From assembly GCA_947305745.1 (NCBI GenBank), contig CAMZEH010000005.1, forward strand, positions 5,339-69,338: 64,000 nt of DNA, written 5' to 3'. Below the pieces are notes generated by a model. It saw only the letters and a program-made list of their open reading frames with translations. It made no database searches and was not told where the DNA came from. The translations under genes were made by a program, and so were the position numbers. The stretch comes from an uncultured Clostridia bacterium. GTDB taxonomy: Bacteria > Bacillota > Clostridia > Oscillospirales > Acutalibacteraceae. This document shows positions 1 through 37,384 of this stretch, piece by piece; positions within the stretch are counted from its first letter, which is position 1, and the number at the start of each line of letters is the position of its first letter.

Positions 1-14
1 TACAATAATAGATT

Positions 15-89
15 TGGTGACTCGTATGGGAATCGAACCCATGTTACCGGCGTGAGAGGCCGGTGTCTTAACCGCTTGACCAACGAGCC
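15..89 (-). tRNA. tRNA-Glu (anticodon CUC)
   Basis: The reverse complement reads GGCTCGTTGGTCAAGCGGTTAAGACACCGGCCTCTCACGCCGGTAACATGGGTTCGATTCCCATACGAGTCACCA (75 nt). It has a 7-bp acceptor stem (one G-U), a GGTTCGATTCC T-arm, the anticodon stem CCGGC/GCCGG with loop CTCTCAC, and an encoded CCA. The scaffold matches Firmicute tRNA-Glu. Confidence 0.9.
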
Positions 90-162
90 ATCGCCCGAAT
101 CTAATTGTATCACAAGCGGTAAAATAAATCAATAGTATAAAATCAATTTTTAAAAAAAAATT

Positions 163-861
163 TTAATCTCTACGGCTTTTAGCGATAAGTATCAGCCTAA
201 CTAGCGATAACAATGAAGTAAATGCCGCCGCCAAATAGGTCATAGCCGCCGCCGAAAGCACTTTTTTCGCACCTTTCACTTCTTCCGGAGCAAGCATTGC
301 ACTTTCTTTAAGTGCTTTGAGTGCCCGTCTGCTTGCATCAAACTCAACTGGCAACGTAACAAGCTCAAAGAGTACCGCAACAGAATATAGAATTATCCCA
401 AGATTAATAACAAATTGATATTTTGTCGGCAAAAATAAACCTATCAGTACCAAAGGCATAGCAAGTCTTGAGCTTGCCGTCGTAACGGGGACGAGAATTT
501 GGCGCAGTCTTATCGGCCAATATCCGACATCGTCTTGCGTCGCGTGTCCGCACTCATGCGCGGCAACGCTCACCGCCGCTAAAGTTGGCTCGGAATACAC
601 ATTTTCAGAAAGATACACGCCTTTTGAACGTGAATCGTAATAATCCGCAAAATATCCCGACGTAGTGTTTACACTAACTCCCGTGACGTTATTGAAATCA
701 AGAACAGCTTTGGCCGCCTCTGAACCCGTAATATTCTTAGACGAACGAATTTTAGAATATTTATTAAATGCATTCTTTACCTTTATTTGTGCATAAAGTG
801 TGACTGCCAACGAAATTATCATAAACAAAATATAGGTCGGATCTCCGTAGTACCAGTACAT
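163..861 (-). CDS. Membrane zinc metallopeptidase (YugP-like putative neutral zinc metallopeptidase family)
   Basis: 232-aa ORF with an N-terminal TM helix, the HExxH motif HECGHA, and C-terminal TM helices. The conserved stretch LITLPVEFDASRRAL is typical of this family. Confidence 0.8.
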   Translation of the reverse strand: MYWYYGDPTYILFMIISLAVTLYAQIKVKNAFNKYSKIRSSKNITGSEAAKAVLDFNNVTGVSVNTTSGYFADYYDSRSKGVYLSENVYSEPTLAAVSVAAHECGHATQDDVGYWPIRLRQILVPVTTASSRLAMPLVLIGLFLPTKYQFVINLGIILYSVAVLFELVTLPVEFDASRRALKALKESAMLAPEEVKGAKKVLSAAAMTYLAAAFTSLLSLVRLILIAKSRRD

Positions 862-1063
862 ATTTACATCTACTCCTCGAAATTCAAAATAGTCAGCAAT
901 TAAATTTTATCATTTACTTTTTTTATTTTCAACATTCTTAAATTTAAAAATTCACTCAAAATTACCACATATATCGACATGTGTTACACAGTAAAATTTA
1001 TTAAAATAACATCATTAAATTTCGAGGAGGTGTAAAAGAATTTAAAAAATTAGCACTTAGGGG

Positions 1064-1092
1064 TTGACACTGCCAAAACACCGTGTTACACT
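1064..1092 (+). promoter_or_regulatory. Sigma-A type promoter upstream of hsp20
   Basis: TTGACA (1064-1069), a 17-nt spacer, then TACACT (1087-1092), about 50 nt upstream of the hsp20 ATG. Confidence 0.55.
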
Positions 1093-1142
1093 CATCATTG
1101 TAAGCAGTTTTGCTTAAAACATTTTTAGGAGGTTTGATATTT

Positions 1143-1589
1143 ATGCGTATGGTTCCTTTTCATTCAAATGATTTATTCGGAGATTTTGATCTATCCGACC
1201 CGTTCAAAGGTCTATTCAAAACTTTGGATTCTTTACCGAGAGTTCCAAACGTTATGAATACGGACGTCGTGGAAAAAGATGGCAAGATCGAACTTATTAT
1301 GGACTTGCCAGGAGTGAAGAAAGAAGATATTGAGATTAAACTTGAAGAAGGCAATCTTATCATCAGCGCCTCGACAAGCGAAAGCAAATCTACGGAGGAA
1401 AAATCAGATAATACGAATTATATACGTAAAGAACGCCACAGCGGAAAATATACTAGAAGTTTTTATATCGGCGAACACATTACTTCTGAGGATATAAAAG
1501 CGAAATTCGAAAATGGTACGCTTGCACTTACGTTCCCAAAAGAAAAACCTAAAGAAATCCCGCAAAACAACATAATAAGTATTGAGTGA
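1143..1589 (+). CDS. Hsp20/alpha-crystallin family small heat-shock protein
   Basis: Alpha-crystallin domain (DLPGVKKEDIEIKLEEGNLIISA ... GKYTRSFYIGEHI ... AKFENGTLALTFPK). ATG 1143 follows AGGAGG (1127-1132). The ORF-track TTG start at 1110 has no RBS. Confidence 0.85.
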   Translation: MRMVPFHSNDLFGDFDLSDPFKGLFKTLDSLPRVPNVMNTDVVEKDGKIELIMDLPGVKKEDIEIKLEEGNLIISASTSESKSTEEKSDNTNYIRKERHSGKYTRSFYIGEHITSEDIKAKFENGTLALTFPKEKPKEIPQNNIISIE

Positions 1590-1611
1590 AATTAGACAAA
1601 CCATGAAAAAC

Positions 1612-1647
1612 TTATCTGCACCTTCAGTAGGTGCAGATAATTATTTT
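1612..1647 (+). terminator. Rho-independent terminator after hsp20
   Basis: Perfect 11-bp stem TTATCTGCACC / GGTGCAGATAA, 7-nt loop, followed by TTATTTT. Confidence 0.8.
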
Positions 1648-1672
1648 GCGCAGATAAGATTATTAAAATCCT

Positions 1673-1701
1673 TTGACAATTTTTTTAAATTAATATATAA
1701 T
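1673..1701 (+). promoter_or_regulatory. Consensus sigma-A promoter for the tandem small-peptide genes
   Basis: TTGACA (1673-1678), exactly 17 nt, then TATAAT (1696-1701). Confidence 0.7.
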
Positions 1702-1744
1702 GTAAATTATGAAGTGTTAAATCTATTTTTGGAGGGGATGAACA

Positions 1745-2053
1745 GTGACCAGGAGTAAAAGTTTCACTAAACTGAAATACAATTCACTCGAAAATATTTC
1801 GGGAGGAAATTCTGAAGTTAAAAATAGACCTGAATCCATTCAAATCGGTTTAATATGTGCATCATTCGGAGCCGCCGCAGCCGCAGTAACATCAGCCGCT
1901 TCCTGCGCAATTTACAGAAAAAAGAGCGATACCGCGATGAAACTAGGTAATAATGAAAAAGCGAAAAAATATGATTCTGTTATGTCAGGATTAGCTGTAG
2001 CAGGTGTATGTTTTGCCTCGGCAGCACCGCTTATATACCTCATGGCAGACTAG
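1745..2053 (+). CDS. Double-glycine-leader peptide, paralogue 1 (bacteriocin-like, two hydrophobic helices)
   Basis: GTG start 7 nt after GGAGGGG. The N-terminus is MTRSKSFTKLKYNSLENISGG, with hydrophobic residues at -4/-7/-12/-15 relative to GG. Two Gly/Ala/Ser-rich hydrophobic segments follow, joined by a Lys-rich loop. Paralogous to the next two ORFs. Confidence 0.6.
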   Translation: MTRSKSFTKLKYNSLENISGGNSEVKNRPESIQIGLICASFGAAAAAVTSAASCAIYRKKSDTAMKLGNNEKAKKYDSVMSGLAVAGVCFASAAPLIYLMAD

Positions 2054-2196
2054 AATAAGATCAGCGTTTTGGCATACGCAGTATTCATCTTTGCAAAATA
2101 TTAAAATTTATCGATGAAACTTTTATCATATTATTATGTGTAATTTATGTTATCAACCGGAGTTTAAATTAAATTTTCAGAAGGTGTTTTAAATTT

Positions 2197-2508
2197 ATGA
2201 ACAGGAAAAGTTTTAAAGTTGAAAAACTGTCGGACAGCTCGCTTGAAAATGTTTCCGGTAGAGAAAGCGGTCTAGAAATGTATGTTTTTTGGGGATCAAT
2301 GTTTTTTGTTCCAATTGCTGCAATCGGAGGAACAGCTTGCGCTATCGCCAGTGCCGTTTATAATTCAAAAGCTGCACGTCAAAAAGATGTAGAGCAAGAT
2401 AAAAAATATACTAAAAAATCAAAAGATTTATCAATCGCTTCTGCATGTTTCGGTAGCCTGTCCGCTTTATGCACTACAACAGTCGTTACAATAATCCTTA
2501 CCGATTAA
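2197..2508 (+). CDS. Double-glycine-leader-like peptide, paralogue 2 (GR instead of GG)
   Basis: ATG preceded by GAAGGTG. The leader-like segment is FKVEKLSDSSLENVSGR. It shares the core GGTACAIASAVYNSKA with paralogue 3, followed by a Lys-rich loop and a second hydrophobic helix. Confidence 0.6.
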   Translation: MNRKSFKVEKLSDSSLENVSGRESGLEMYVFWGSMFFVPIAAIGGTACAIASAVYNSKAARQKDVEQDKKYTKKSKDLSIASACFGSLSALCTTTVVTIILTD

Positions 2509-2607
2509 AAGTAAAAATTTTCCTTTGAAAATTTTCTATCAATTTGTTGAATACTTTCAAAAAACAATCAATTTAATTAAAGCACATCTTTACAAAGGAG
2601 CGATTTT

Positions 2608-2937
2608 ATGCCAACCATTATAAAAAAACTTAACCTGGCTTCACTTAAAAACGCTTCGGGCGGCGGAAAGCAAGATGTGGAGAATTTCATTATCTATGGA
2701 TCAATAACGTCTGCAGCTCTTGGGTCAATTGGAGGATCGGCCTGCGCAATTGCCAGTGCTGTTTATAATCAAAAAGCTTCTAACGCTCTAAAGCAAGATG
2801 ATATGCGAAAAAGGGAAAAATATGCCGAAACAGCAAAAAGTTTATCTATAGCCGCTGCATCTTTAGGTGGGCTAACCGTTTTAAGCGGCAGTGTGCTACC
2901 AGTGAGCCTTTTACACTCGTGGATTCGCCGACATTAG
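2608..2937 (+). CDS. Double-glycine-leader peptide, paralogue 3
   Basis: ATG preceded by AAGGAG. The leader-like segment is IIKKLNLASLKNASGGG, with core GGSACAIASAVYNQKA and a second hydrophobic helix. Confidence 0.6.
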   Translation: MPTIIKKLNLASLKNASGGGKQDVENFIIYGSITSAALGSIGGSACAIASAVYNQKASNALKQDDMRKREKYAETAKSLSIAAASLGGLTVLSGSVLPVSLLHSWIRRH

Positions 2938-2975
2938 TGTAATATCTCTATGCACCTTAAATTGGGCGCAGTTTT

Positions 2976-4682
2976 TTATTCTTCGCGGAAAATATTAAAT
3001 GCGCGCAGTAAATTGAGCGTACCATAGCCCCACTGTGGATTTGGATAATCTCTGTTTGCGTCGCGGTCACACCCTCGTATCAGAATTAGTCTGAGTCTAT
3101 TGCCCGTGAGGGCAAGGAAATTTCTTTCCACTATCGCCCACTGCATTAGCAGTGCCGCTGCACCCGCAGTAATTGCCGCAGCTACGCTCGTTCCACTCAT
3201 CTCTACAAAACCATTCGGGGAAACTCCCTCGACGTTCACTCCCGGCGCGGCGAAATCGGGCGAAAACTTCATTCCGACAGTAGGCCCCCAAGAGCTATTT
3301 ATATAAAGACTGCTTTCTATGCTATTATATGCACCGACGGCTATCGTTCCCATGGCGGTTGAAGGAATCACCGTTGTATAATTTGGTGTCGGCGCAACAA
3401 ACTCTATATCGGGACTCACAAACCCCGTCATCGGTAACCACGCTTGATACTCTCCGCTTATTATCAAATCGCCGTGGAGATTTATTTCCCACGTTCCCGG
3501 CACGACGTCCGTTATCTGCACTATCGCAAACCTACTTTCGTTTTGATGATATGCAATATTGACCGTAGAACGTTCAAATATCAGCTTTTTCTGATACGTC
3601 GTACCCACAAAAAACGGAATTTTATTTATTATTTCACCTGTTGGAGATTTTAGCGAAAACGAAATTTTATCCCAGCCCGAATACCATATATAAACGCTCA
3701 GAGTTTTCGCCTGTTCTCCCACGCGTACGGATATCGGCACAACATCGCCCTCCTTTTCCACAACCCCTTGCGTATGATGCCTGGCATTGCTCTCATTGCC
3801 CACTGCGGTAGATATAACCGTCCCAACCGAATTCGACAAAAACGATATATAGTTTTCCAGACGATTTTGCCCATTGTGTCCGCCGAAGTTTGTGCCGAGT
3901 GCGAGGCATATCGAGCATGGTCTCCCGAGAGCTCCCGCCTGCTCAAAGATAAACGACAGACCAAGCATTATATCAATTGAAATATATGCATTTTCCTGTT
4001 CGGGCGGGACTAAAAACTTTTTCAGATAAAACGGCGCCGCTTTTTTCAGTTTGACTACTATCAAATCGGCATCGGGCGCAGCTCCTATGAATTCGCCGTC
4101 TTGTCGACCCGCCGCGAGAGATGCAAGATACGTCCCGTGTCCATTCTCATCTTTATGCGGCACTATATTATATGGCTCTTCACTCCTAAGTGCTTCATTA
4201 ATCTGTTCGGCGGTATAAACCGTACCAAAATTCACACCGTAGTTTTGCGGTCCTTCTGCAGTTTGATCCCAAATATACTTAATTTTTGTCGTCCCGTCTT
4301 CGTATCTGAAAACGGGATTCGTGTAATCTATGCCGGTATCGACTATGCCTACAATCACGCCCGAGCCGGTAAGGTTTAAATACGGCTGCTGCTGTACGTC
4401 CGCTATACCACTTGCTTCGAGCGCCTCGGTAAAAGTCAGACCGTACACTTCCGGATAGGTATTTAGAAAATCCGAACCGAGCTCTTCGAAAATAGTTTCC
4501 ATATTTTCTTCATTTGTACACAAAATCGCAAGGTCATTAGATAGCACTTTAACGAGCCGTATATAAGGTTTATCGGCCAGATACGCCTGAAAAGAAGGCG
4601 TATACCAGGCGTAAAACGGAACCGTTGTCGGCAAAGCTATAAATTCATCGAGCGGCAGTAATATATCTTCTGAATTCGGCAT
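2976..4682 (-). CDS. S8 subtilisin-like serine protease, Csp (germination-specific protease) type
   Basis: Full catalytic triad: VGIVDTGIDY (Asp), NGHGTYLASLAAG (His), SGTSVAAAITAGAAALL (Ser). About 100-aa prodomain, no signal peptide, IWDQT motif, ~570 aa as in clostridial CspA/B/C. ATG 4682 follows AGGAGG. The ORF-track TTG at 4712 lies upstream of that RBS. Confidence 0.7.
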   Translation of the reverse strand: MPNSEDILLPLDEFIALPTTVPFYAWYTPSFQAYLADKPYIRLVKVLSNDLAILCTNEENMETIFEELGSDFLNTYPEVYGLTFTEALEASGIADVQQQPYLNLTGSGVIVGIVDTGIDYTNPVFRYEDGTTKIKYIWDQTAEGPQNYGVNFGTVYTAEQINEALRSEEPYNIVPHKDENGHGTYLASLAAGRQDGEFIGAAPDADLIVVKLKKAAPFYLKKFLVPPEQENAYISIDIMLGLSFIFEQAGALGRPCSICLALGTNFGGHNGQNRLENYISFLSNSVGTVISTAVGNESNARHHTQGVVEKEGDVVPISVRVGEQAKTLSVYIWYSGWDKISFSLKSPTGEIINKIPFFVGTTYQKKLIFERSTVNIAYHQNESRFAIVQITDVVPGTWEINLHGDLIISGEYQAWLPMTGFVSPDIEFVAPTPNYTTVIPSTAMGTIAVGAYNSIESSLYINSSWGPTVGMKFSPDFAAPGVNVEGVSPNGFVEMSGTSVAAAITAGAAALLMQWAIVERNFLALTGNRLRLILIRGCDRDANRDYPNPQWGYGTLNLLRAFNIFREE

Positions 4683-4838
4683 ATAAATCCTCCTAATATA
4701 AGAATTTTCCAAAATATGCTATGCAAGCGGTTTCATGCACTATAATATTACTAACTGCAAATGTAATTAATACGCCAAAAGTATCGCTTCTTCTAATTAA
4801 ACATGTTATAATAAAAAACAAAAACGGAGAATTAATTT

Positions 4839-5219
4839 ATGCAAAAAATGTACATGACACATCCTATTTTACCCACACCGAACCCCAAACAAACCGCTGA
4901 TTTTTACGTCCAAAAATTAGGTTTTGATTCGGTAGAATATTTAAATGCCAAAGAACCTCACATATGTTTATACAAAGACGATATTGAGATTATACTGACA
5001 GATTCAAACGGTCAAAAAGTCATTCCGAACCGTGAATTGTACGGCTATGGATATGATGTTTATATAATCGTAAATAATCAAGAGGAACTGCAGAAAGAAT
5101 TCGACGATAAAGGACTTAAAATCGTAAAAAGACTTTCCGTAACCGACTATAATAACAAAGAATTGGTTTTGGAAGATATTGACGGCAGGTGGCTTGGGTT
5201 TGGTGTAAAACTCGGATAA
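4839..5219 (+). CDS. VOC (glyoxalase/bleomycin-resistance-like) family protein
   Basis: 126-aa ORF with a beta-alpha-beta-beta-beta style pattern (FYVQKLGF ... EIILTD ... YDVYIIV ... LVLEDIDGRWLGF). GGAG RBS lies 9 nt upstream. Confidence 0.5.
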   Translation: MQKMYMTHPILPTPNPKQTADFYVQKLGFDSVEYLNAKEPHICLYKDDIEIILTDSNGQKVIPNRELYGYGYDVYIIVNNQEELQKEFDDKGLKIVKRLSVTDYNNKELVLEDIDGRWLGFGVKLG

Positions 5220-5275
5220 AAAAACTATATAATTTGAATAGATAACCATTTGAAAATTTTCAAATAAAAAATTAT

Positions 5276-7009
5276 TTAAATATATCCGTTGAAAATCCAT
5301 AATTCCTCCAAGGCGTCGTAAACACAGAGCGTTCCGTAGCCAAAACTATTATTTGGGTAATTTATTCTGCCGTTTCTCCGCGAACCTTTTTTTAGGTAAG
5401 CTTTTAATCTTTCGCCATATAAAAACGGGTCCCTCTGCTGTACGATGCCCCACTGCATGAGAAGTGCCGCCGCGCCCGAAACAAACGGCGCCGCCATACT
5501 CGTACCGCTAAAAAGTGAATATCCTCCACCCATAGACGGCGCAAGAATATCCACCGCCGGTGCGACCAAATCGGGCTTTGTGTAAACAACGCTCAAGGTG
5601 TATCCGCGGCCTGAAAAATCTGTTATTATGTTCCTCACAGAGTCATATCCACCGACTGTGATTACGTTTTGAGCCGTCCCGGGTATTGTAAGCGTTGCGT
5701 CGATTGACGGATTGACAAAACTTGTATCCGTTCCGACTTCTTCCACGGTCGGGAGATAAATATCATAGCTGCCCTCAACGATTTTTCTCGCTCTGACGCG
5801 TATTTTATATATTCCGATGGGCAATTGCCCTTCCACTGGGTCGATTTGAAAAAATATTTCCTGAAAAGTAGTATAAAACTTCGGCTGACCATAGCTTACA
5901 ACTATTCTTGCGTCGCCTATACGAAAATTCCTTACCCTATCAATATACGAAATCTCGCCCGTTGAGCGCCCGCTCGGAAGAATCAGCCCAACGGAGAAAT
6001 CATCCGCAAAATTTTTCCACATCGTAAGAAAAAACGAATTATTTTTACCCGAATAGAAAAATTCTATATTTTGAACTTCATCGTTTGAAATTTTGCCTGA
6101 ATAATGATGCCCCGCAGAACCTTCGTTACCCGCTGCCACCACTATCGATGTTTTCCATTTTTCCGCCATGCTATTTATATAAAGCTCAAAAAGCGACTGC
6201 CCGTTATGCGCGCCGTCGTTTGTGCCGTAACTTATGTTTATTACAAGCGGCAAACCAAACGCCAGAGCTTTATCAAGCGAATATTTAACAGCTCGCATAA
6301 GTTCTGTCGTCCTTGCAAAAGACGGGTATCCTTTTTCGCCAAGCTTTACGACTATAATTGAAGCATTCGGTGCAACTCCGACGTTTTCTCCGCCCGATGC
6401 CCTTCCGTTTCCCGCGGCAATCCCCGCCACAGCCGTTCCGTGCCCCATAATATCTACTTCAGGCACAAGAGAATATGGGTCATTCGACGAAAGAGCAGCG
6501 TTAATTTGCTCGTTTGTGTACTCTGCGCCCGACGTGAACCCCTGCGGAGGGTTGCCTTCGCCGGTCTGATCCCACATGCAAAGAATTCTGCTTGTTCCTT
6601 CCTCGTTTATGAAATCGGGGTGCGTATATTCTATCCCCGAATCTATTATCGCTACCGCAACGCCTTCGCCCGTAAGGTTATACCTGCCTACTCTCTGCAC
6701 TTCGGGTACACATGAACTTCTAACGCTTTCCTGGTAGCTAAGAGTGAGTATTTTTGGCGCTTCTACAGCCTCGACTTCCGTGAACTCCGTTAAGCGCGAA
6801 AGTTCGCTCAGCCGAAGCGTTATAATTGCAAAATTTTCGCTGAGAATCTCGGTTTCTACGCCGAGCTGACGCCCTACCGCCACAATATCGCCATTATATT
6901 TTACGATTACTTCCAGCGGCGCATCGCTAAAGCCGTAATACCCCGCAAGCGGAACGATATCGCTTTCGGAAATCACCGCTCTTCCCGGCACCAAACTCGA
7001 TAAAGACAT
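5276..7009 (-). CDS. S8 subtilisin-like serine protease, Csp (germination-specific protease) type
   Basis: Full triad: VAIIDSGIEY, MGHGTAVAGIAAG, SGTSMAAPFVSGAAALL. Prodomain with VIVKYNGDI, MWDQT motif, no signal peptide, 577 aa. GGAGG lies 7 nt upstream of the ATG. Confidence 0.7.
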   Translation of the reverse strand: MSLSSLVPGRAVISESDIVPLAGYYGFSDAPLEVIVKYNGDIVAVGRQLGVETEILSENFAIITLRLSELSRLTEFTEVEAVEAPKILTLSYQESVRSSCVPEVQRVGRYNLTGEGVAVAIIDSGIEYTHPDFINEEGTSRILCMWDQTGEGNPPQGFTSGAEYTNEQINAALSSNDPYSLVPEVDIMGHGTAVAGIAAGNGRASGGENVGVAPNASIIVVKLGEKGYPSFARTTELMRAVKYSLDKALAFGLPLVINISYGTNDGAHNGQSLFELYINSMAEKWKTSIVVAAGNEGSAGHHYSGKISNDEVQNIEFFYSGKNNSFFLTMWKNFADDFSVGLILPSGRSTGEISYIDRVRNFRIGDARIVVSYGQPKFYTTFQEIFFQIDPVEGQLPIGIYKIRVRARKIVEGSYDIYLPTVEEVGTDTSFVNPSIDATLTIPGTAQNVITVGGYDSVRNIITDFSGRGYTLSVVYTKPDLVAPAVDILAPSMGGGYSLFSGTSMAAPFVSGAAALLMQWGIVQQRDPFLYGERLKAYLKKGSRRNGRINYPNNSFGYGTLCVYDALEELWIFNGYI

Positions 7010-7055
7010 AAAAAAGCCTCCTTATCACACTTCTATGATAAAGAGGCCAAATTTA

Positions 7056-7850
7056 TTAATTTTTAATAGTTATAAATGCTGCGTTATTTCCGCGCTTACC
7101 TTGCGTCGCACGGTGCGAAAATAGCCAATCTTTATTGCAGCAGCTGCAAATATCCGACTTGACAATATTTTTTGAAGGCACACCAAAATTTTCCAGAATT
7201 CTTTTATTCGTTTCTTTGAGATCGATATTAAATTTGTTGTTTTTGTTTTTCTCAAAAGTCATTCCGAGGTTTAAAGCCTCAAATTCATTTTTTACACCTT
7301 CGCCCACTTCAAAGCAGCACTTACCAATACACGGCCCTAATGCGCACATGAGATTTTCTTTCTTACTGCCGAATTTTTCTGTAAAATTGCGAGCTAAATT
7401 TTCGGCAATTTTCGAAACCGTACCTCGCCAGCCTGCATGAGCAAGGCCAACGACTTTTTTAACGAGGTCGAACATATATACAGGGCAACAGTCGGCATGA
7501 GAAGTCTTTAAAACCACGCCCGGAATATCCGTTATAAAGCCATCCGCACCCGAAAAATTCAGATTTCCGCTCTTAACATCTTCATCTGTAATAATTTTAA
7601 TTTTGTTTCCGTGAATTTGCAGACTTCTAACCAGTTTTTTTCTATCGTAACCGAGAGCCAAACAGAAAATTTTATAGTTTTCTTCAATATTTTCCGGCGT
7701 TTCCGAACCCGAAAGATAAAAATTCATGGAACTGAATTCGTTTTTACTAACTCCGCCCAACCTCGTGGAAAAAGCGTGGCTTAAAAAAGGATACTGCTCA
7801 AATTTTTTAAACGTCAAATAGCCGACTTTATCGCTAAAATTTAAATTCAT
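7056..7850 (-). CDS. pgeF: Peptidoglycan editing factor PgeF / YfiH-family (DUF152) protein
   Basis: HADCCPVYMFD and GLAHAGWRG motifs, plus a C-terminal CSCC...F.SHR pattern typical of YfiH. The start is set at MNLNFSD (ATG 7850). The longer ORF-track start would run into the terminator of the upstream gene. Confidence 0.8.
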   Translation of the reverse strand: MNLNFSDKVGYLTFKKFEQYPFLSHAFSTRLGGVSKNEFSSMNFYLSGSETPENIEENYKIFCLALGYDRKKLVRSLQIHGNKIKIITDEDVKSGNLNFSGADGFITDIPGVVLKTSHADCCPVYMFDLVKKVVGLAHAGWRGTVSKIAENLARNFTEKFGSKKENLMCALGPCIGKCCFEVGEGVKNEFEALNLGMTFEKNKNNKFNIDLKETNKRILENFGVPSKNIVKSDICSCCNKDWLFSHRATQGKRGNNAAFITIKN

Positions 7851-7929
7851 GGTTTCGCTATTGAAATTCACAAAATCGCCTCGTATAAAAGTTATCAATA
7901 CTATAGTAAGTTTATTCTTCAAAATTGTC

Positions 7930-7959
7930 AATAAAAACCCTGCCACACAAAGCAGCAGG
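7930..7959 (-). terminator. Rho-independent terminator closing the AAA+ operon
   Basis: On the minus strand: CCTGCTGC-TTTGT-GTGGCAGG (8 bp including two G-U pairs), followed by GTTTTTATT. Confidence 0.6.
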
Positions 7960-7975
7960 AATAAAGTACATATTT

Positions 7976-10306
7976 TTATTTGTCGGTTTCACTGTTCCGC
8001 TCGATGTAATCATTAATCTGATCAGCAGTGAGTGATGCCTCAGGATTAAGACTCTGCAGCTCTTTTGCTGCTTTGCTGTAATTATCGTATGAATCATATC
8101 CAAGCGGAAAAATTTTAAATTTAATCGTAAGCTTACCTGTGGAATCATGTGTTTCATAAGGTTTGGCAAGGAAAGTAAGTCCTTTATAGCTCTTGCCAGC
8201 ATTTTTAATCGCGGAAAACTCTTCAACAACAGATGAGTACAAGTTCCCACATACAGATCCCGTTTTACTGCCTCCGGCACCTACTATGGCTCTGGCAGCA
8301 TTTGGCATCTTCGCGGCATATTGAGCTATTTTCCTATAGTCAGCATCAGTTATCAACACACCGCCTATTCCCTCGCTGATACGTATAATCAAACTTACGT
8401 TATACGGCGAACTATGTTTGTTGTATTCCGCAACATTAGGTATACTCCTGATATCTTCGATAGCACTGCGAGCGATTTTCTCGTAATCGTCAACGGTTAA
8501 TTTATCAAAGTAGCATGTGCTATTAGCAAATCGCTGAGCTATAGAAGAGTCGTGCGGAACTAAAGTTTGCGTTCCGGAATCATCATCATATTTTGGCGTT
8601 ATATAGACAAAATCGCCACCGTCATCTATAACAGGTTTACCGGTATCATCACCTTTAATTTCCATCAATTTTCCTTGACTGGTTACTTTTACCCTACCTT
8701 GAAGCGAAGCGGACGTTTCATTCGTAGTACATATAAATACTAATCCGTTTAAGTCTATTGTGTTTCCGTAATGATCTTTTAATTCATTGTAATATATAGA
8801 CCTCAACACTTCGTCGAGTGGGTGTTCACTCGGATATTTGCCGTCATTTCCTTTTTTATAGATTTTATCGAACTCATCTAAAATTACAACTCTGACGTGA
8901 CCTTCGGTTGATTTTAAGTATGATGCCAATGTGTTTGACTCGCCGAGCAGCGATGATGTCGAGGTCCTGTCGGCTCCTTGTTTTGTGTTACTGTAGAGCA
9001 GTGCGTAAGGCATATCTCCATAACTATTTTTTGCAGCTTGCAACACATCGCCTGCTGTTAATACATAAGGTTTTATACTTGTTAATGATTCACTTAAGAG
9101 ATTAGCCATATATGTTTTTCCGGTGCCTGACGGCCCATTAAATATAAGCACTTTTGGTTCAGGAAGATCAGAAACATATGCTCCCATTTTTGCAGCTTTT
9201 CTTTCCGCAGAGAAACCAACAAAGAATGACATTATTTGCTCTTTAGCGCCTTTCTGACCATGAATTTCGTTATCAAATTTCTTTCTGAGCACTCTTTCTT
9301 CTTTTTCAGAATCGTATTTCTTTTCTGCTTCTTTTTGCATGTTCAGTTCGATAAGCTTTTCAGCTTCTTGCTTATACTGACCCAATTCCTTGGTTTGATA
9401 CCTGATCATATTTACATCATCGAAAAATTTACGAACTGAGGAAAAAGCACCTGTCGTTTTGGAAAGTAGCGTTGCTACACCACCGGCTGTTGTTGTCAAG
9501 GCACCGGTGAGTACCAAGCCTTCGGTTAATTTTTTTACAAACCCTTCTTTTTCTAAACGTTCTTTTTCGCTCAATAAATAATGCTGTGCGTTAAACTTTG
9601 CTTCTGGCGGCATTTTGTCGTTCCGCAATTCGTTTAGTGCTTTTTTGGTCTCCTCGAGTTCGTCACGATTCTTAATAGCTGCTTGGAAATTTCCTCCTAT
9701 TTTATCGCGTTGACCAACAAGAGCTGCGCCGCCCGTTATAAGTGCAGCTGAGGCTAACAAAATTTTTCCTTTATTATCCCAAATGGTATCCGCCAATTTA
9801 TTTAAAGTATTTAAAATCTTCGCACCTGTGGATATATTTTCAGGCGGTTCCTCGTCTTCTTGACTGCGGAGATCATCATATTTTTCACTAAATGATTTTT
9901 CATCACGAAGCTGAGAAAAGTTTGGATTTACATTTGATTCCGAAGTATCTTTGGCGTATATGTGAGCAGACGTCATAAACGAGAGAGAAGCTAAAGCTGA
10001 AGCCGCAATTCTTTGCATGACATTTGCCCCACCGGAAACTTCATTTAAAGCTTTTTCGCTGAGTTTTTTTATTTCATCATCACTGATTTTTTGAGCTTCC
10101 TCGGCCGCTTGTCCGATTTCATCAAGGCACATACAAACAAGCTGATCAAAAAACTCGCAAAACTCCTCAAAGGTGTATCCATCCTGGATAGTTTGGCAGA
10201 TTTTGTAAAGCTCAACCATATCATCAGTTACCATAATTTGATCAATTTTTGCTTCGTTATCAAAAATTTTTTCCATCAAAATATCTAAATTGGAATTATT
10301 AACCAT
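7976..10306 (-). CDS. Membrane-associated AAA+ ATPase (single ClpB-D2/torsin-like module) with N-terminal Nif11-like domain and double-glycine motif
   Basis: Walker A IFNGPSGTGKTY, Walker B VVILDEFDK, sensor-1 FICTTNE. A Lys/Glu-rich coiled-coil linker and hydrophobic segments precede the ATPase. The N-terminus ends ...KKLSEKALNEVSGG. The start is taken at MVNNSN (ATG 10306, AAGGA 9 nt upstream). The ORF-track TTG is at 10324. Confidence 0.7.
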   Translation of the reverse strand: MVNNSNLDILMEKIFDNEAKIDQIMVTDDMVELYKICQTIQDGYTFEEFCEFFDQLVCMCLDEIGQAAEEAQKISDDEIKKLSEKALNEVSGGANVMQRIAASALASLSFMTSAHIYAKDTSESNVNPNFSQLRDEKSFSEKYDDLRSQEDEEPPENISTGAKILNTLNKLADTIWDNKGKILLASAALITGGAALVGQRDKIGGNFQAAIKNRDELEETKKALNELRNDKMPPEAKFNAQHYLLSEKERLEKEGFVKKLTEGLVLTGALTTTAGGVATLLSKTTGAFSSVRKFFDDVNMIRYQTKELGQYKQEAEKLIELNMQKEAEKKYDSEKEERVLRKKFDNEIHGQKGAKEQIMSFFVGFSAERKAAKMGAYVSDLPEPKVLIFNGPSGTGKTYMANLLSESLTSIKPYVLTAGDVLQAAKNSYGDMPYALLYSNTKQGADRTSTSSLLGESNTLASYLKSTEGHVRVVILDEFDKIYKKGNDGKYPSEHPLDEVLRSIYYNELKDHYGNTIDLNGLVFICTTNETSASLQGRVKVTSQGKLMEIKGDDTGKPVIDDGGDFVYITPKYDDDSGTQTLVPHDSSIAQRFANSTCYFDKLTVDDYEKIARSAIEDIRSIPNVAEYNKHSSPYNVSLIIRISEGIGGVLITDADYRKIAQYAAKMPNAARAIVGAGGSKTGSVCGNLYSSVVEEFSAIKNAGKSYKGLTFLAKPYETHDSTGKLTIKFKIFPLGYDSYDNYSKAAKELQSLNPEASLTADQINDYIERNSETDK

Positions 10307-10413
10307 TGGCGACATTCCTTTCAAATTATTCTATTCATCCTCTTTCTATTATAATCAACCTAAACTAAAAAGTCAAGTAAAATAAGTTTATTTTATACAG
10401 TATTTGTTGTTTG

Positions 10414-11766
10414 TTACAGTAATTGTCTTGAAAATTCGTATTCACCGGTTTCATGGTTTTTTCCAAATAGTATTTTAACGTTTCTTCCATAATCCTTGCC
10501 CATTGTTTTCGCCATTAAACCTCTAATTTCATCTTCAAAAACATTTTTCAGTCTGCCTTGCATAATCTTATCGTTAAACATATCCTCAGCCATTGAATCA
10601 CGGATTTCTTCTTCGAAAATGACGTCAGCCAGCCTGAAAGGTCCCGCGGGCTCTTTTAAACTTTCGGTAATTTTTTCAATCATATCATCAACTATCGAGC
10701 GGCAGGCTTCCTTGGAAAGATGTTCGAATTCAATAATATTTAAGCGCTGTGCGCCACCGCCTTTTGTGCCGTCTATACCGAAATTTTTTTCAAGTTCTTG
10801 GTGTGTTTCATTGGTAGTGACAAGAAAAAGCGTCCTGGTACAATCGACTTCTTTATTCATAAACTTATATTTACCTGTGGAAGCTATCGAACGTAATATC
10901 TCATCAGCACTGTTGTCAACCGATGATGCCTCCTTCTGGCCTGGAATAGGCACACTGACACCCTGGATGTTCATAGTCGTCCCCGGTTTTGCACTTTTGA
11001 GCTTCATCTTATCATATTCATCAATAATTACAACAGATTCATACCATTGCAAGAGATGTTTAAGCATGGGAGATTCTTCATCTTTGGGGACAAGGCCGTC
11101 GCTACCAGTAAACCAGTTTTTTTGACGCTTTTCTCCTATATCTTTTGTCAAAATCGTTTTAAAAAGCTGCGTACCCAGCTCCGACTCAGACGTTATGCTC
11201 TCGCTATGGCAGAAAATACACGTTTTTTCAGAATGTTTTAAAAATGCGTCAGCAATGGCATAACACATTTTTGTTTTCCCCGTGCCGGATGGCCCGATTA
11301 TATAGATTATATTCCCACGCATATCTTTTTCGTCATATTTTCCGCGATTTAAATCGTCAACCCTTGCGGCAACACCGCTAAGAGCATTGAACATCTGTCG
11401 TTTCGCCCTTTGCTGACCGTATACACGAACTTCGGATTTACTATTACAAATATCCTCCAGCTTTTTTACTATTTCGGAAATTTCGCGAAATCCCGAGTAT
11501 TTATTAACTTCGCTGCGAGCCTTTGCGCTATCAATAAACCCATCGACGCGCATTATAATTTCACCAAGTATCCTTGGTACCATACTGGCTATCACGGAGC
11601 CGATAACTGAAACCAAAAGCCCGTTACCTTTTCCAATTTGCGCACTGCCGGTTACTGCCTGTGCATTTTCTTCTGCTTTTGTACCCGGCATCAAAATCGA
11701 TCTGCCACTAAAAATCAAACTAAACGCCAAAAATCCTGCCAAACATTTTCTCTTAAAAATTTTCAA
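10414..11766 (-). CDS. Membrane-tethered AAA+ ATPase (single ClpB-D2/torsin-like module)
   Basis: Signal/anchor MKIFKRKCLAGFLAFSLIFSG and a second hydrophobic helix LLVSVIGSVIASMVPRILGEII. Then VYGQQRAKRQMF, Walker A IIGPSGTGKTKM, Walker B VVIIDEYDK, sensor-1 LVTTNE. TTG start preceded by GGGGGA. Confidence 0.7.
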   Translation of the reverse strand: MKIFKRKCLAGFLAFSLIFSGRSILMPGTKAEENAQAVTGSAQIGKGNGLLVSVIGSVIASMVPRILGEIIMRVDGFIDSAKARSEVNKYSGFREISEIVKKLEDICNSKSEVRVYGQQRAKRQMFNALSGVAARVDDLNRGKYDEKDMRGNIIYIIGPSGTGKTKMCYAIADAFLKHSEKTCIFCHSESITSESELGTQLFKTILTKDIGEKRQKNWFTGSDGLVPKDEESPMLKHLLQWYESVVIIDEYDKMKLKSAKPGTTMNIQGVSVPIPGQKEASSVDNSADEILRSIASTGKYKFMNKEVDCTRTLFLVTTNETHQELEKNFGIDGTKGGGAQRLNIIEFEHLSKEACRSIVDDMIEKITESLKEPAGPFRLADVIFEEEIRDSMAEDMFNDKIMQGRLKNVFEDEIRGLMAKTMGKDYGRNVKILFGKNHETGEYEFSRQLL

Positions 11767-11862
11767 TCCTTTTCCCCCGTTAATATATCAAATTTTAAAA
11801 TCAATTGTTCCGAATAAGTATATTAACAAATTTTTAAGCAGAAATCAAGCAGGATTTACGGT

Positions 11863-13674
11863 TTATGAAATTTTTGTTATCTCAAATTTTATTTTATCAC
11901 CATCCAAATTGCAGATGATCTGCTCTTCACTTTTTAGCTTTCTTCTGATCATCAAGTCCGAAATTGGGTGTTCAATATTTTCCGTTATGATCTTATCGAT
12001 GGTTCTGGCACCGTATAAATTTTTTTCTTCAAAACTAAGCTTGCGTATATAAGCTACAACTTCATCGGGAATCTTGATCCCAATTCCGCCCGTGAAAAGT
12101 CTGTTTTCGAGGCCGGAAAGTTTCATCTTCACTATAGAATTATAATTTTCTTCCAAAAGATTATTGAAAAATATAACATTATCTATTTTTTTCTCTATAT
12201 TGTTATCAAAGTTATCAATAACGTTTTGTTTTAAAGAGTTTTCGACTGAATTTATGTTGCAATTTGCATCGCTCGAATTTACAACCATAATAACAATCGC
12301 ATTGGTAAAATCAACTTTTTTGCCCGAAAAATCAGTTAGAAAACCTCTGTCTAAAATTTCATATATAACGCTCAACTCAGCAGAATCTGCCGAGTTGATA
12401 TTATCAAACATAACCACGGAATAAGGATTTTTCATAATTTTTTCTATCAGCTCGCTCTTGCTTTCGCTCGAACCGACTAGATTTTTAAGCGAATGCTTAT
12501 ATCCGATGCCTAGCATATCAACACTTATAAAACTACCGATTTCTTCCCCAATCACTCTTGCAAGCTCGCTTTTGCCTACTCCGGGAGGTCCTACAAACAT
12601 AAAAGAAGCTCTGGGTTTATTCTCATCACAGAATCCCAAACGGCTCCTCTTCACCGCTGAACAGACAATATCGACGGCGTGATCTTGCCCTATGACAAAT
12701 TTTTTCACTCGATTATTCATAGTTTCCAGCGCTTCGGCTTCATCTGCCGACAAATCACCGATCGGTATATTTGTTACTTCGGATATAGCGTCTATAACAT
12801 CACCTCGTTTAACTTGACATATATCTCCTTTTGACTTTTTCTGTGCGGTTACCAAAGCTAAATTAAGTATATCTACCGCTTTGTTGGGGTAAAATTTATT
12901 TTTCATATATCTTCCGGTGAGATTTACGATATCCATAAGCACTTCGTCAAATATTTTTACATGTTGTTTTTTTTCGGCATCGCTCTTTAAATACTTGAGT
13001 ATCCTAAAAGTATCAAATTTATTGGGCTCTTCCAAAAAGATATATGTATAATCTTGAGCAAAAGCATCATTTTTCATCATTTGAGTGTATTGTTCGTCCG
13101 TCGCCGAAACTATAATTTTTATATCTCCTTTATCGAGATACGTTTGTATAAGTTCCAAAACGCCGGGGATTTGTGATATTTGATAGATATTATCAATAAA
13201 CAAAATAATATCTTTATCCGATTTAGCGTTATTCAAAATAGCTCTCAAGCGAGTCAATATACTACCTTTTACTCCGCTTTTCCCAACAATGAGTTTGGCG
13301 ATATTGACTTTAAATATCTTTTTGTTTTTCATGTTTTCAGAAACATTATCGTGAGCAATTCTATACGCCAATCCCTCAACAAGTGCCGTTTTCCCGACAC
13401 CTTTGCCCCCGACTATACATGGGTTACTTTTCTCACTCAGTAAAAGTATATCGGTCAAATTTTCAATTTTGTCATCGCGCGTGAAAAAGTCGTGATACTC
13501 ACCACTTCGTGCTTTTTCGGTCATATTTTCGCAGTATTCGGACATAACAAAATATCTGTCGGCATCAAAAAAGCCCGATGCAGCGATAACCTCATATAAA
13601 GGCTTTGCAGTCATAGAACTAATGGTATTGAGGATCGTCGAAAACAAAATAGTTAAAATCAAAATTCCCACCAT
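11863..13674 (-). CDS. Membrane-anchored ClpB/ClpA-like two-ring AAA+ protein, predicted hydrolysis-deficient
   Basis: N-terminal TM MVGILILTILFSTILNTISSM. D1 has GGKGVGKTALVEGLAYRI and D2 has VIGQDHAV ... FVGPPGVGKSELARVIG, both collinear with ClpB D1/D2. The N-domain and M-domain are absent. Walker B reads ILFIDNIY and VVMFDNIN (DN, not DE). AAGGAG RBS lies 9 nt upstream of the ATG. Confidence 0.75.
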   Translation of the reverse strand: MVGILILTILFSTILNTISSMTAKPLYEVIAASGFFDADRYFVMSEYCENMTEKARSGEYHDFFTRDDKIENLTDILLLSEKSNPCIVGGKGVGKTALVEGLAYRIAHDNVSENMKNKKIFKVNIAKLIVGKSGVKGSILTRLRAILNNAKSDKDIILFIDNIYQISQIPGVLELIQTYLDKGDIKIIVSATDEQYTQMMKNDAFAQDYTYIFLEEPNKFDTFRILKYLKSDAEKKQHVKIFDEVLMDIVNLTGRYMKNKFYPNKAVDILNLALVTAQKKSKGDICQVKRGDVIDAISEVTNIPIGDLSADEAEALETMNNRVKKFVIGQDHAVDIVCSAVKRSRLGFCDENKPRASFMFVGPPGVGKSELARVIGEEIGSFISVDMLGIGYKHSLKNLVGSSESKSELIEKIMKNPYSVVMFDNINSADSAELSVIYEILDRGFLTDFSGKKVDFTNAIVIMVVNSSDANCNINSVENSLKQNVIDNFDNNIEKKIDNVIFFNNLLEENYNSIVKMKLSGLENRLFTGGIGIKIPDEVVAYIRKLSFEEKNLYGARTIDKIITENIEHPISDLMIRRKLKSEEQIICNLDGDKIKFEITKIS

Positions 13675-16482: not shown

Positions 16483-16526
16483 ATAATAAATATTGGTTTT
16501 GAGCGATTATTGTGGAGGAAATGCGT

Positions 16527-22500: not shown

Positions 22501-22508
22501 ACGAATAA
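16527..22508 (+). CDS. Giant (1994-aa) repeat-rich cell-surface protein with N-terminal signal/anchor and C-terminal TM anchor
   Basis: One uninterrupted ORF. ATG 16527 lies 7 nt after GGAGGA. The N-terminal hydrophobic segment is FIWCIAALFMILSFAV. Many ~90-100-aa repeats share the pattern K.(S/I)Y(T/S)V.F ... YG..L.F ... GYD.S ... NG.Y.L.NI..D. The C-terminus is FLAVLAILLLGSLLILIILLANRKKDKKDD. No LPXTG motif was seen. Confidence 0.8.
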   Translation: MKKIFYNLKLANSKFIWCIAALFMILSFAVKVDCTDGFSKSIIALPKAENGIEKIEYIVNGEAKGSTDGVDSIELEAGAKITFAVKFESEGYGKLHVRNVKIKSENGSVLRFNTYAKDDEGNFVLMRVEDSAPINPDQTYVSSDYIVRKDDKLSFEGIEEDKYLVKIADENNDVNLSDAVKLKYAENGGNYIEAEFSEGENAFLINNLTKSSNVKLMFEFTEGYTNSDLSLVNSENQIAIDTKSKICTLPQLKGDIDLEIRNLKKNSYSVTFNEYSNAKFSYRIAGSDDEFTSSEILKVNYGDCLEIKCATSSDDILKSGDVTANGKVIAKNNGIYTLENIKDHYSIAITPKVNAIYTISLPENEDRIKLCDTFGNEVSEINAKQNDSVDLKIIPSDAYSKNFILAEMYAVPMSKLTNGNYDIYADPEEAKSFLLLPSGDFLYTLKNINEPVKIIAGKMDKNIYTVTLPEKIIGANAQIEPSENITQITENKFKVVHGMDLVVNLEAQAGYDLSTINASDVDNSVEVKKDGNKYTFKNIDSDKYIIINGASASSCKVSFDGNDIVATSENGHTWENNSASIKYQEGTLKFKVRPADNAGNPNEDIPLSIKSGSGKLEKISSEKNMYSLSGVTDNIVLSANRAQSSDVTIALKSDDDDIQFTDADDENIILPEENTVKYGTDLKFKVLSKSGRSTDNASIMSSVSNPITPSDTSSNTFSVTALRSGTTLANTRETAKTGHYVDLCENIYSPDSPSSAKAYSGVASFSMEQAIPLPLVVLSKDPEACECINQPEKIQLSPTGTDPTLMVNDPNYKLIETGETPEENLYESELILPQILYGNTVLDNQKFKLNFKISHYTIIGGDTASSGYPTQVLFVKEILQGKSGANDVERVIPSTDAAVPATAISEKTTGDYYAQKTIDEYTPDGSSALQYLPDCYCQGFGVLYKWVSLDRNLDYDVNHQSTLEYKDLDNISSDFNITTYSPDYDSDNYARFDFKPATSKFKIYLEKGKTFASGVTEPISLNEGAHAKLTQSIVQDGAYCYIDCTLTATAFDKSISLNWSNNSQIENLKHDIKYNPIGGICRNSQKTETTADQVGYAQGLTFYTEPKEGYMYTDSLRILKNQTFYNVDDISKIKIIDNTNEASYNGEWIKLSYSDSDPGLFIRAIMEDSQIKYEIAGSTETISEYIIKNNDASGTENVNYSKVVPSEIITPEGVTTDLQITSTRILRKVTVTFSYSEGSEYTQIDGTVIEDTQKTLNYGEALAFKVVAKDGYDISNIQVTASTATTTNILPLTNGMYVLVNVSEPTTISVSGIEKSNILLQFEQYEGVKYKNTAGGEYLLRQEIPYYQEIPFQIEIDESYSQKAENIKAYVNGEEFSDSPDSENPRPYVDNNLYIIPRECVNQDIKITLSGLEVNKYSVLLKPSNGIKYYDTTGENILPENNGNINYGNSFKFRLQADYGYDISNVEVIAKRNSGGGSPVTLIPANGIYTIDNITSDYVVTVSGISKQQHTVEFRTVTGVACIDSYGKTLPSSITVSDGDDYSFYLSFDPAYSKSKDTADVTIKGTNNKVPHDSSGKYTLSNITENKIVEIINVTKNSYTATFVPAEGVVYRTAKGKEFSGTLNVEYGESLYFKISLLDAYDQSTPAVKMNGTKSLLENSGSYVLENISEDVTVTVENVEKNPEEVTIDYIQNVPDPVRNEDDVNAVVAATKAYNSLSDEEKKLVTNKQALEKAQNEAGNINHTSNGTTISGVDWNVKLIVTPLSDNEEEMNSFAEDVDRRSVLSLYRAELIDLLTGENYSIPYGKSVQITMPCPDLTGYKNITVAHRNLADNMEYLDPNIIGETVKFATSSMGLFGVAGKEIPNYSKNTSDMSISMGNLVSDDDELKTLLGEDLSSELGHLIDLEDENSKKSNNANAGGENGSRGSEGSDSLLNSMASGISAFANSLYNWAMDNEFLAVLAILLLGSLLILIILLANRKKDKKDDNIEKSDE

Positions 22509-37316: not shown

Positions 37317-37384
37317 AATTTTCCCCCTTAAATCGACATAAACATAATATATCATTTCGGAGCGATAAGCAAAAACATAAATAT

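Follow-up and report, generated by a model that had tools for sequence, protein, structure and literature searches.

A 64-kb stretch of DNA from an uncultured Clostridia bacterium (contig CAMZEH010000005.1), referred to in its full length as the window, contains an array of three adjacent paralogous genes, copies 1-3, whose products join an N-terminal leader of the double-glycine (GG) type to a core that is identified, from profile matches and motifs, as a CD225/dispanin domain. The original prediction, made from this DNA, described the products as bacteriocin-like GG-leader peptides; it overlooked the CD225 identity and the fast-turnover slot that is kept in a Clostridia clade. The reading that we favor, to which we give a little less than an even chance, is that the array encodes microcin-sized cationic hairpins that are exported in trans, attack membranes and change fast. 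Leader cleavage, export in trans and antagonistic activity are the parts of this reading that we infer. GG leaders, class II microcins and bacteriocins, Nif11-type leaders, orphan GG peptides and bacterial dispanins are already known separately, and no paper linking CD225 with bacteriocins or GG leaders was found in the literature searched. Fast-turnover Clostridia arrays in which an export leader of the GG or Nif11 type precedes a dispanin domain appear new to that literature.

The three-gene array

The three genes and the signals around them are arranged as follows (aa, amino acids; pI, isoelectric point).

1612..1640, + strand: intrinsic terminator of the upstream Hsp20 gene, a 12-bp stem that includes 5 GC pairs and has a T-run behind it; 5' boundary of the array unit
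1673..1701, + strand: sigma-70-type promoter of the array, TTGACA-17-TATAAT, a 12/12 consensus match
1745..2053, + strand: copy 1, GTG start, 102 aa; leader MTRSKSFTKLKYNSLENISGG (1745-1807), then a predicted 81-aa mature hairpin of 8.3 kDa, pI 8.9
2197..2508, + strand: copy 2, 103 aa; leader (2197-2262) ending LENVSGR, then a predicted 81-aa hairpin with a weak CD225 match
2608..2937, + strand: copy 3, 109 aa; leader MPTIIKKLNLASLKNASGG (2608-2664), then a predicted 90-aa hairpin of 9.4 kDa, pI 9.5, with a CD225 match at E 9e-5
2951..2977, + strand: possible weak terminator 3' of the array (tentative), a 6-bp interrupted stem (2951-2970) plus T6 (2972-2977), abutting a convergent subtilase gene

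The three open reading frames (ORFs), their lengths and their paralogy agree with the original prediction. Copies 2 and 3 are 40% identical (E 2e-22), and copy 1 is approximately 30% identical to copies 2 and 3 (E 5e-7 and 2e-6, respectively). Each product consists of two hydrophobic helices with a Lys-rich charged loop between them, and IGG(T/S)ACAIASAVYN.KA is common to copies 2 and 3; both the helices and the shared core had been described correctly.

The perfect consensus promoter claimed for the array is likewise present. The exact sequence TTGACA-17-TATAAT occurs three times in the window, compared with 0.06 expected, which indicates a genuine strong-promoter class in this genome. The other two perfect sites are located at 37384-37412 (+), upstream of a GNAT gene, and at 57820-57848 (+), upstream of a gene for a 426-aa secreted protein without a Pfam match. 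Each gene had also been assigned its own ribosome-binding site, which stands for copies 1 and 3, where the Shine-Dalgarno sequence is good, and less so for copy 2, where it is weak. No further ORF of at least 50 aa is present on either strand of 1600-2976. The hairpin 3' of copy 3 folds no better than shuffled sequence (z-score -0.45), and an Rfam scan of positions 1-8000 returned a tRNA as the sole match.

Conservation of the double-glycine leader

The leaders of copies 1, 2 and 3 end in LENISGG, LENVSGR and LKNASGG, respectively, each behind a Lys-rich segment. At -4/-7/-12/-15, copy 1 has I/L/L/F, copy 2 has V/L/L/V and copy 3, with cleavage assumed after its first GG, has A/L/L/I. Hydrophobic residues at these four positions are the criteria for such leaders, and Leu -7 and Leu -12 form a "hydrophobic knot" (PMC6959990, PMC7018657). 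An exhaustive profile search over 1.84 billion cluster representatives (threshold E <= 1e-3) returned 73 proteins (approximately 70 cluster representatives), and 62 family members were aligned. In this alignment, Leu occupies -12 in 60 of the 62 members, and Leu or Met occupies -7 in 58; Val or Ile is found at -4 in 60, and Gly at -2 in 60 and at -1 in 61. The predicted GG register therefore holds in all three copies and across the family.

A fall in conservation after GG among homologues had been proposed as a check, and the alignment exhibits it. Per column, the leader carries 2.79 bits of information, compared with 0.92 in the linker directly after GG, 2.09 in the core, 1.76 in the loop and 0.57 in the C-terminal tail; the leader is the best-conserved segment of the family, and the steep drop coincides exactly with its GG end. 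Additionally, the AF2 model of copy 3 contains a short helix at residues 10-16, which correspond to -10 to -4 of the leader. The docking helix of the leader in the complex of CtA with PCAT1, one of the peptidase-containing ABC transporters (PCATs), likewise spans -10 to -4, and the PCAT recognizes the leader alone, through Leu -7, Leu -12 and this helix, with position -4 tuning the specificity (PMC6959990).

The GR that was noted in place of GG in copy 2 was confirmed, and it is unique: copy 2 is the sole member among the 62 without Gly at -1. The codons of copy 2 (GGT AGA) are one transition short of GG, and the endings listed for PCAT signal sequences, namely GG, GA or GS (PMC7018657), do not include Arg at -1; judged from the sequence, copy 2 is probably a recently disabled or non-cleavable variant.

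Assignment of the core to the CD225/dispanin domain

Against the Pfam CD225 model (PF04505, gathering threshold 27.1), the score is 22.9 bits for copy 3 (E 9e-5) and 14.5 bits for copy 2 (E 0.04), both under the threshold, and copy 1 has no match, whereas the family consensus reaches 37.3 bits (E 3e-9), which is above the gathering threshold. CD225 is matched at E < 0.01 by 15 of the 62 members, with a best value of 5e-7. The relative P0074 carries a precomputed PF04505 annotation, and an array copy (MDO4200119.1, P0020) in locus L009 (L-numbers denote loci in other genomes) is named "CD225/dispanin family protein" by NCBI.

Dispanins are defined by the G-D and A-x6-A motifs of their Lys/Arg-rich loop together with Cys/Ala in the first helix and Gly in the second (PMC3282796), and the family consensus contains all of these features. 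Within the window, the G-D position is partly degenerate (G-N in copy 1, K-D in copy 2 and D-D in copy 3), as is A-x6-A. An hhalign comparison with human IFITM3 places the loop and helix 2 on IFITM3 residues 78-120 with 33% identity (E 4.7e-4), a result that we take as supporting only. In the AF2 model, copy 3 forms a helical hairpin with helices 21-62 and 66-94 and a turn at the G-D position (mean predicted local distance difference test score 75.8). A Foldseek search against the PDB gave nothing below E 2 and only generic helical hairpins (PspA/ESCRT-III); designed armadillo repeats containing "LSNIASGG", which were retrieved by a PDB sequence search, were discarded as spurious matches. On the profile and motif evidence, we identify the family core as a CD225/dispanin domain.

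A family with exchangeable leaders

Each cluster of the family is tiny, comprising 1-6 members found on 1-2 contigs, and all of the members whose source is traceable come from uncultured Clostridia in metagenomes. The family architecture consists of a leader of one of two types, a variable 10-15-aa linker and the conserved two-helix core, with the core consensus GC.IAS.VY..KA.KA...GD...A.KY.K.AK.L.IA.....G. The short leader type, to which copies 1-3 belong, is approximately 20-25 aa long and reads K-L-x-D-x-S-L-E-N-V-S-G-G. The long type of approximately 86 aa ends in the same motif and scores 22.3 bits (cut-off 32.3) against the NCBIfam Nif11-like model TIGR03798 in an alignment that covers positions 2-68 of 68; 5 of the 62 members match this model at E < 0.1. 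The same core is found behind either leader type, and the same short leader is found on many unrelated Clostridia cargoes, which reveals a modularity of leader and cargo. A 125-aa gene in L002 (9480-9857), directly upstream of a dispanin-family member, combines the full 86-aa long leader with a different 39-aa cargo and, by its sequence, adds to the evidence for leader/cargo shuffling.

The mature region is cationic in 58 of the 62 members. The net charge in the family is +4 for the loop, -0.35 for the linker and +0.3 for the tail; in the window, it lies between +2 and +3 for the leaders and between 0 and -2 for the linkers. The predicted mature peptides of the window have 81-90 aa, masses of 8.3-9.4 kDa, pI values of 8.0-9.5 and estimated volumes of 10,200-11,600 Å3, and the mature hairpins are rich in Gly/Ala/Ser and in small-xxx-small motifs.

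A word-indexed homologue search with copy 3 as the query found copy 3 itself only; the same type of search with the 62-sequence alignment scored nine proteins, with low-complexity words flooding the candidates, and with a core-only 42-residue alignment it gave no match. A metagenome scan with the long-leader alignment identified two loci, and a scan of viral contigs identified none. In PADLOC, the small array proteins have no match and the AAA+ proteins of the window, which are described below, have generic P-loop matches only.

Turnover of arrays at a conserved slot

One chromosomal slot holds differing arrays in five related genomes. In L009, from the Clostridia metagenome-assembled genome GCA_030523605.1, the gene order is that of the window (Zn-peptidase, Hsp20, array, subtilase), and a near-consensus promoter, TTGACA-17-TACAAT, is present at the same place as the window promoter. 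The L009 array has four copies compared with three in the window. The flanking proteins of the two loci are 85-93% identical, whereas the array copies are at most 43% identical and have no one-to-one orthologues. The synteny continues in loci L040, L043 and L041, where it takes in the Csp-type subtilases together with a Cu-oxidase_4 gene and the genes of the AAA+ protein and a ClpB-like protein. The arrays of these three loci are other mixes of long-leader members, short-leader members, 93-99-aa short-loop variants and a copy truncated beside fragments that resemble insertion sequences (IS). The IS-like fragments, which encode a 52-aa helix-turn-helix protein and an 84-aa ORF, lie inside the array (L040, 6551-7147; L043, 9197-9793) and truncate a long-leader copy.

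A comparison of L040 with L043 gives ratios of nonsynonymous to synonymous substitution (dN/dS), from small counts, of 0-0.36 for the flanking genes, 0.05 for an intact 93-aa member and 1.2 for the truncated copy. These values suggest that intact members are constrained genes under purifying selection and that the truncated copy drifts neutrally. The dN/dS pattern, small counts included, indicates that the deep divergence between the genomes comes from gene turnover.

Family members also occur after secA (three copies in L003 and one in L004), among housekeeping genes (L002), and in L039 (956-2223), where two long-leader members lie between a parE-like gene and azlDC/comEC. In the region of the window that is syntenic with L039 (55754-63225), the slot is filled by a 426-aa ORF (57886-59166), which was considered as a family member and rejected as an unrelated protein with a Sec signal. 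The contents of this slot in L039 and in the window therefore show that the family occupies several variable slots.

The subtilase gene at 2976-4712, the convergent neighbor of the array, is kept in the five syntenic loci; its presence there probably reflects synteny by descent, with no functional link. A second subtilase gene is located at 5276-7009, both genes are on the reverse strand, and one of the products has a CspB prodomain, which identifies Csp-type spore-germination proteases. Farther along the window, a 1998-aa ORF (16512-22508, +) with a signal-like N-terminus, a very hydrophobic C-terminal transmembrane (TM) segment (residues 1963-1981) and no Pfam match probably encodes a giant surface protein.

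The same leader on other cargoes

A degenerate DNA pattern for K-L-x-D-x-x-L-E-N-[VI]-S-G-G was run over 185,579 species-representative genomes, for which approximately two chance matches were estimated. It identified 33 loci, approximately 30 of them in Clostridia, with very diverse cargoes. A PCAT-type ABC gene is present inside an 8-kb stretch at 5 of the 33 loci (L011, L017, L018, L028 and L029), and the other 28 are orphan. In L011, L018 and L029, the PCAT is confirmed by Pfam (Peptidase_C39, ABC_membrane and ABC_tran); L017 and L028 contain PCAT-type ABC genes. Because the leader adjoins confirmed PCATs on other cargoes, it is a PCAT substrate signal in this bacterial group.

All five PCAT-linked loci carry a CW_7-repeat cargo: the peptides, of approximately 106-119 aa, consist of a KLxDxxLENVSGG leader and two CW_7 (cell-wall-binding) repeats, and their genes lie beside the PCAT gene and a second ABC gene without a peptidase domain. 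By sequence, these peptides are a separate PCAT-linked family of GG cargoes in Ruminococcaceae and other Clostridia.

Within the window, a six-frame translation contains L..[VIALM][STAN]GG only in the small genes and in an AAA+ protein (residues 93-99), and a leader-only hidden Markov model (HMM) ranks copies 1-3 first and the AAA+ site next.

10028..10324, - strand: Nif11-like leader-type N-domain (approximately 99 aa) with which the 782-aa AAA+ protein begins; it ends in LNEVSGG, encoded with the GG codons at 10028-10033

The N-terminal fragment of this protein scores 16.0 bits against TIGR01847 (cut-off 15.7) and matches positions 9-86 of the long-leader HMM (E 0.006), and the orthologue in L040 keeps the N-domain, which there ends in LSDVSGG. 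The recurrence of the leader string in the AAA+ protein had been predicted; the register is indeed the same, but L-N-E-V-S-G-G is not identical to L-E-N-V-S-G-G. As for the suggestion that the motif links the array to the AAA+ operon, the AAA+ leader is real and conserved in L040, but family members are found in several contexts without an AAA+ gene, which points to shared processing machinery and to no functional operon link. The GG codons were also considered as the ribosome-binding site of an internal start; their sequence, GGT GGG, and the lack of a Met after GG in the L040 orthologue led us to drop this possibility.

The AAA+ protein (7976-10324) continues after the N-domain with a hydrophobic stretch and, near residues 186-204, a TM segment, behind which lie a coiled coil and the AAA domain. 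Its gene is one of three consecutive AAA+ genes (7976-13674, -) with products of 782, 450 and 603 aa; the 450-aa protein has a signal/TM N-terminus and an AAA domain, and the 603-aa protein has an N-terminal TM segment and a ClpA/B-like double AAA region without N and M domains. In L020, a 691-aa protein carries the GG leader LTENDLENVSGG, followed directly by the Sec-signal-like segment MNKKLATSILMGLSVLTASNNIAKA. This protein was considered as a homologue of the window AAA+ protein and rejected; it is an S41 peptidase.

Proposed mechanism and the evidence on both sides

In the reading that we favor, an ABC exporter of the PCAT type, with its gene elsewhere in the genome, would use its C39 domain to recognize the leader in the cytoplasm via Leu -12 and -7, Val/Ile/Ala at -4 and the short helix from -10 to -4. 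The precursor would be cut after Gly-Gly, and the 81-90-aa cationic, Gly/Ala/Ser-rich cargo would be pushed out of the cell. The freed hairpin would insert into membranes with its hydrophobic arms buried while the membrane potential pulls the Lys-rich tip with the G-D turn across; it would probably oligomerize and may damage or remodel the membranes of competitors. The peptides would thus function like an unmodified class II bacteriocin or a class II microcin analogue, and the array would evolve via rapid gene turnover at a fixed chromosomal slot.

Several observations are consistent with this proposal. The cassette-like turnover, the modularity of leader and cargo and the CPBP genes that neighbor a family member in L020 point, by analogy, to an antagonistic, bacteriocin-like role. 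CPBP/Rce1-like genes are of the classic bacteriocin-immunity type. In L020 (3308-5383 and 6118-8001), the S41 peptidase gene is followed by a gene for a dispanin with a Nif11-GG leader and then by three tandem CPBP/Rce1-like genes, a stretch that may be regarded, from its gene content, as a candidate toxin/immunity island. The cavity of PCAT1 is approximately 15,000 Å3, compared with approximately 9,000 Å3 for its 66-aa cargo (PMC6959990), and, by this analogy, the predicted mature peptides of the window (10,200-11,600 Å3) would fit a cavity of that size. The products had been described as larger than usual for class II bacteriocins, an objection that falls because the mature masses are only 8.3-9.4 kDa. 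Orphan GG peptides and shared pools of PCAT substrates are documented (PMC7018657), and an orphan array with export in trans is plausible on that model. No modification enzymes are encoded in the array neighborhood, and no LanM- or TOMM-type genes are found at the family loci. From the bacteriocin-like interpretation in the original prediction, the leader, the proposed membrane-active hairpin and the orphan status stand.

A number of observations weigh against the proposal. As had been predicted, no exporter is found in the window: no PCAT or C39 domain came up when every large ORF was scanned with Pfam or when two confirmed PCATs served as tblastn queries, and the only matches are to the nucleotide-binding domain of an unrelated nucleoside ABC transporter. 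Ten family loci, with 109 kb in total, also contain no PCAT or C39, although 0 of 10 is not anomalous, because only 5 of the 33 leader loci have a PCAT. The arrays of the window, L009, L003, L041, L038 and L039 consist of family members only and include no immunity gene, whereas verified microcin immunity genes directly adjoin the toxin gene (PMC12219008). CPBP genes are present at 1 of the 10 family loci (L020), and the only CPBP/Rce1-like gene of the window is located at 52651-53466, far from the array, as originally stated. The proposed search with GG-leader profiles did not bear out the prediction for the individual genes: copies 1-3 have no match at E <= 1 to the curated GG-leader HMMs, short models that encode cargo as well. 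For the family consensus, the score is 16.1 bits with PF10439 (cut-off 27.1) and 18.7 bits with TIGR03949 (cut-off 21.5), and PF10439 is matched at E < 0.01 by 6 of the 62 members.

The remaining adverse points concern the expression and the likely location of the products. A constitutive-looking consensus promoter is unusual for a self-toxic product, and, to our knowledge, all CD225 proteins that have been characterized are resident in the membrane. The charge pattern, with a loop of +4 and near-neutral termini, also fits a resident hairpin with the loop inside. Additionally, the GG leader precedes a hydrophobic segment on the AAA+ ATPase and on the S41 peptidase, which are unlikely to be released toxins; an ATPase cannot work outside the cell.

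Alternative explanations

These adverse points lead to the most serious alternative, which we regard as possible but less probable: the products may be resident membrane proteins that are processed at their leader. C39/PCAT would cleave the precursor, and the hairpin would stay in the membrane of the producer with its termini outside and its Lys-rich loop inside. The cationic leader would block premature insertion, and its removal would expose a neutral or acidic N-terminal tail that is able to cross the membrane. By analogy with IFITM proteins, the function could be envelope-related and driven by conflict, such as the exclusion of phages or bacteriocins. The CD225 homology and the positive-inside distribution of charge (loop +4, linker -0.35, tail +0.3) are in line with this topology, as is the variability, since the linker and tail, which would be outside, are the most variable parts and the loop is conserved. 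Arrays without an immunity gene, a constitutive promoter, the purifying selection on an intact member and the presence of a GG leader with a hydrophobic anchor on the AAA+ ATPase (conserved in L040) and the S41 peptidase all agree with retention in the producer. However, cassette-like turnover and the mixing of leader types are the classic bacteriocin pattern, CPBP genes of the immunity type adjoin the L020 member, and the small proteins have no PADLOC match. No role of PCATs has been reported beyond the export of small proteins with GG signals (PMC12219008), which makes this explanation less likely a priori than the export of antagonistic hairpins.

A broader form of the same idea, which we regard as about equally possible, is that in this Clostridia clade the GG/Nif11-type leader may, besides tagging peptides for release, serve more generally to target and process the membrane proteins of the cell itself, including N-out dispanins, the anchored AAA+ ATPase and the anchored S41 peptidase. 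C39/PCAT would cleave the leader and pass the hydrophobic segment behind it to the membrane. Fast-evolving dispanins acting at the envelope of the producer, for instance in the exclusion of phages or toxins, would then be the prokaryotic counterpart, and possibly the ancestor, of the IFITM antiviral function.

It is improbable that the products are ordinary small CD225 integral membrane proteins, inserted by Sec/YidC, in which the GG-like N-terminus is never cleaved. The curated GG-leader models give no significant match for the window copies, no C39 is encoded nearby, and copy 2 retains an intact ORF in spite of its G-R, all of which would be expected in that case. Such a look-alike is disfavored, however, because the leader is the best-conserved segment, with a nearly invariant Leu -12 and Gly-Gly and a sharp drop after GG, because it is interchangeable with the Nif11-like leader of approximately 86 aa that has the same ending, and because the identical leader adjoins PCATs on other cargoes.

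Pilin-like subunits of the VirB2 or Mbov_0395 type, which are two-helix hairpins with a cleaved leader in conjugation or secretion apparatuses, were suggested by weak NF045849 matches (copy 2, E 5e-4; 4 of the 62 members), but the scores are well under the cut-off (19.6 compared with 40), the 25-aa charged loop with CD225 motifs is unlike that of pilins, and the explanation was rejected as very improbable because type IV secretion system genes are absent from all of the contexts examined, including each of the ten loci.

Significance and comparison with known systems

We know of no function for bacterial CD225/dispanin proteins, from which the animal IFITM antiviral proteins are believed to derive. 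In the present family, the dispanin fold comes with a defined signal for processing and export and with an evolution of the conflict type. If the peptides are secreted toxins, dispanins would represent a new structural class of microcin-sized bacteriocins in gut and rumen Clostridia, and the IFITM fold would seem to have arisen as a membrane-attacking peptide. If the hairpins are instead retained in the producer, PCAT/C39 would gain a second role, in membrane-protein biogenesis, which is unreported so far. Because the leader genes are mostly orphan (28 of 33 loci), a bacteriocin miner that depends on a PCAT or immunity gene close by will miss them.

The closest parallels to the exported hairpins that we propose are the class II microcins and GG bacteriocins. 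Both have a GG leader of 15-25 aa with hydrophobic residues at -4/-7/-12/-15, presumed processing and export by a PCAT, an unmodified Gly/Ala/Ser-rich cationic mature peptide of less than 10 kDa, and tandem paralogues. Microcin V, for example, has a 103-aa precursor and an 88-aa mature peptide, and one family member has a weak match to the Pfam MccV model. The array differs from these systems in that its locus contains no PCAT, accessory or immunity gene and in that its cargo is a conserved CD225 domain, unlike any characterized bacteriocin; its hosts are uncultured Clostridia.

PCAT1-CtA of Clostridium thermocellum offers a clostridial parallel, with a 90-aa precursor, a 24-aa GG leader, recognition of the leader only and a cargo that fits the cavity (PMC6959990). 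CtA has a defined PCAT and a cargo described as unstructured, whereas the array has no linked PCAT and a cargo that is predicted to be a helical hairpin. The pneumococcal rtg GG peptides resemble the array in their strain-variable locus and in belonging to a setting in which the signal sequence decides the pairing of PCAT and substrate and orphan GG peptides are a recognized class (PMC7018657). Unlike the array, the rtg locus encodes its own PCAT and regulator, and its peptides are unrelated in sequence to those of the array.

The Nif11-leader precursors (N11P, TIGR03798, e.g., prochlorosins) share with the long-leader members of the family a long helical leader that ends in Gly-Gly. They form large paralogous families whose genes are scattered over the genome and depend in trans on common machinery (PMC2887384). 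In contrast to these precursors, the array family has no LanM or cyclodehydratase nearby and carries a long conserved membrane hairpin in place of a hypervariable core rich in Cys/Ser/Thr. Finally, the family has in common with the CD225/dispanins (IFITM1-3, PRRT2 and bacterial dispanins) the two hydrophobic helices, the Lys/Arg-rich loop and the defining motifs, but where those proteins are concerned it is set apart by the absence of a long N-terminal domain, by its GG or Nif11-like leader and by its organization in tandem arrays with fast turnover.

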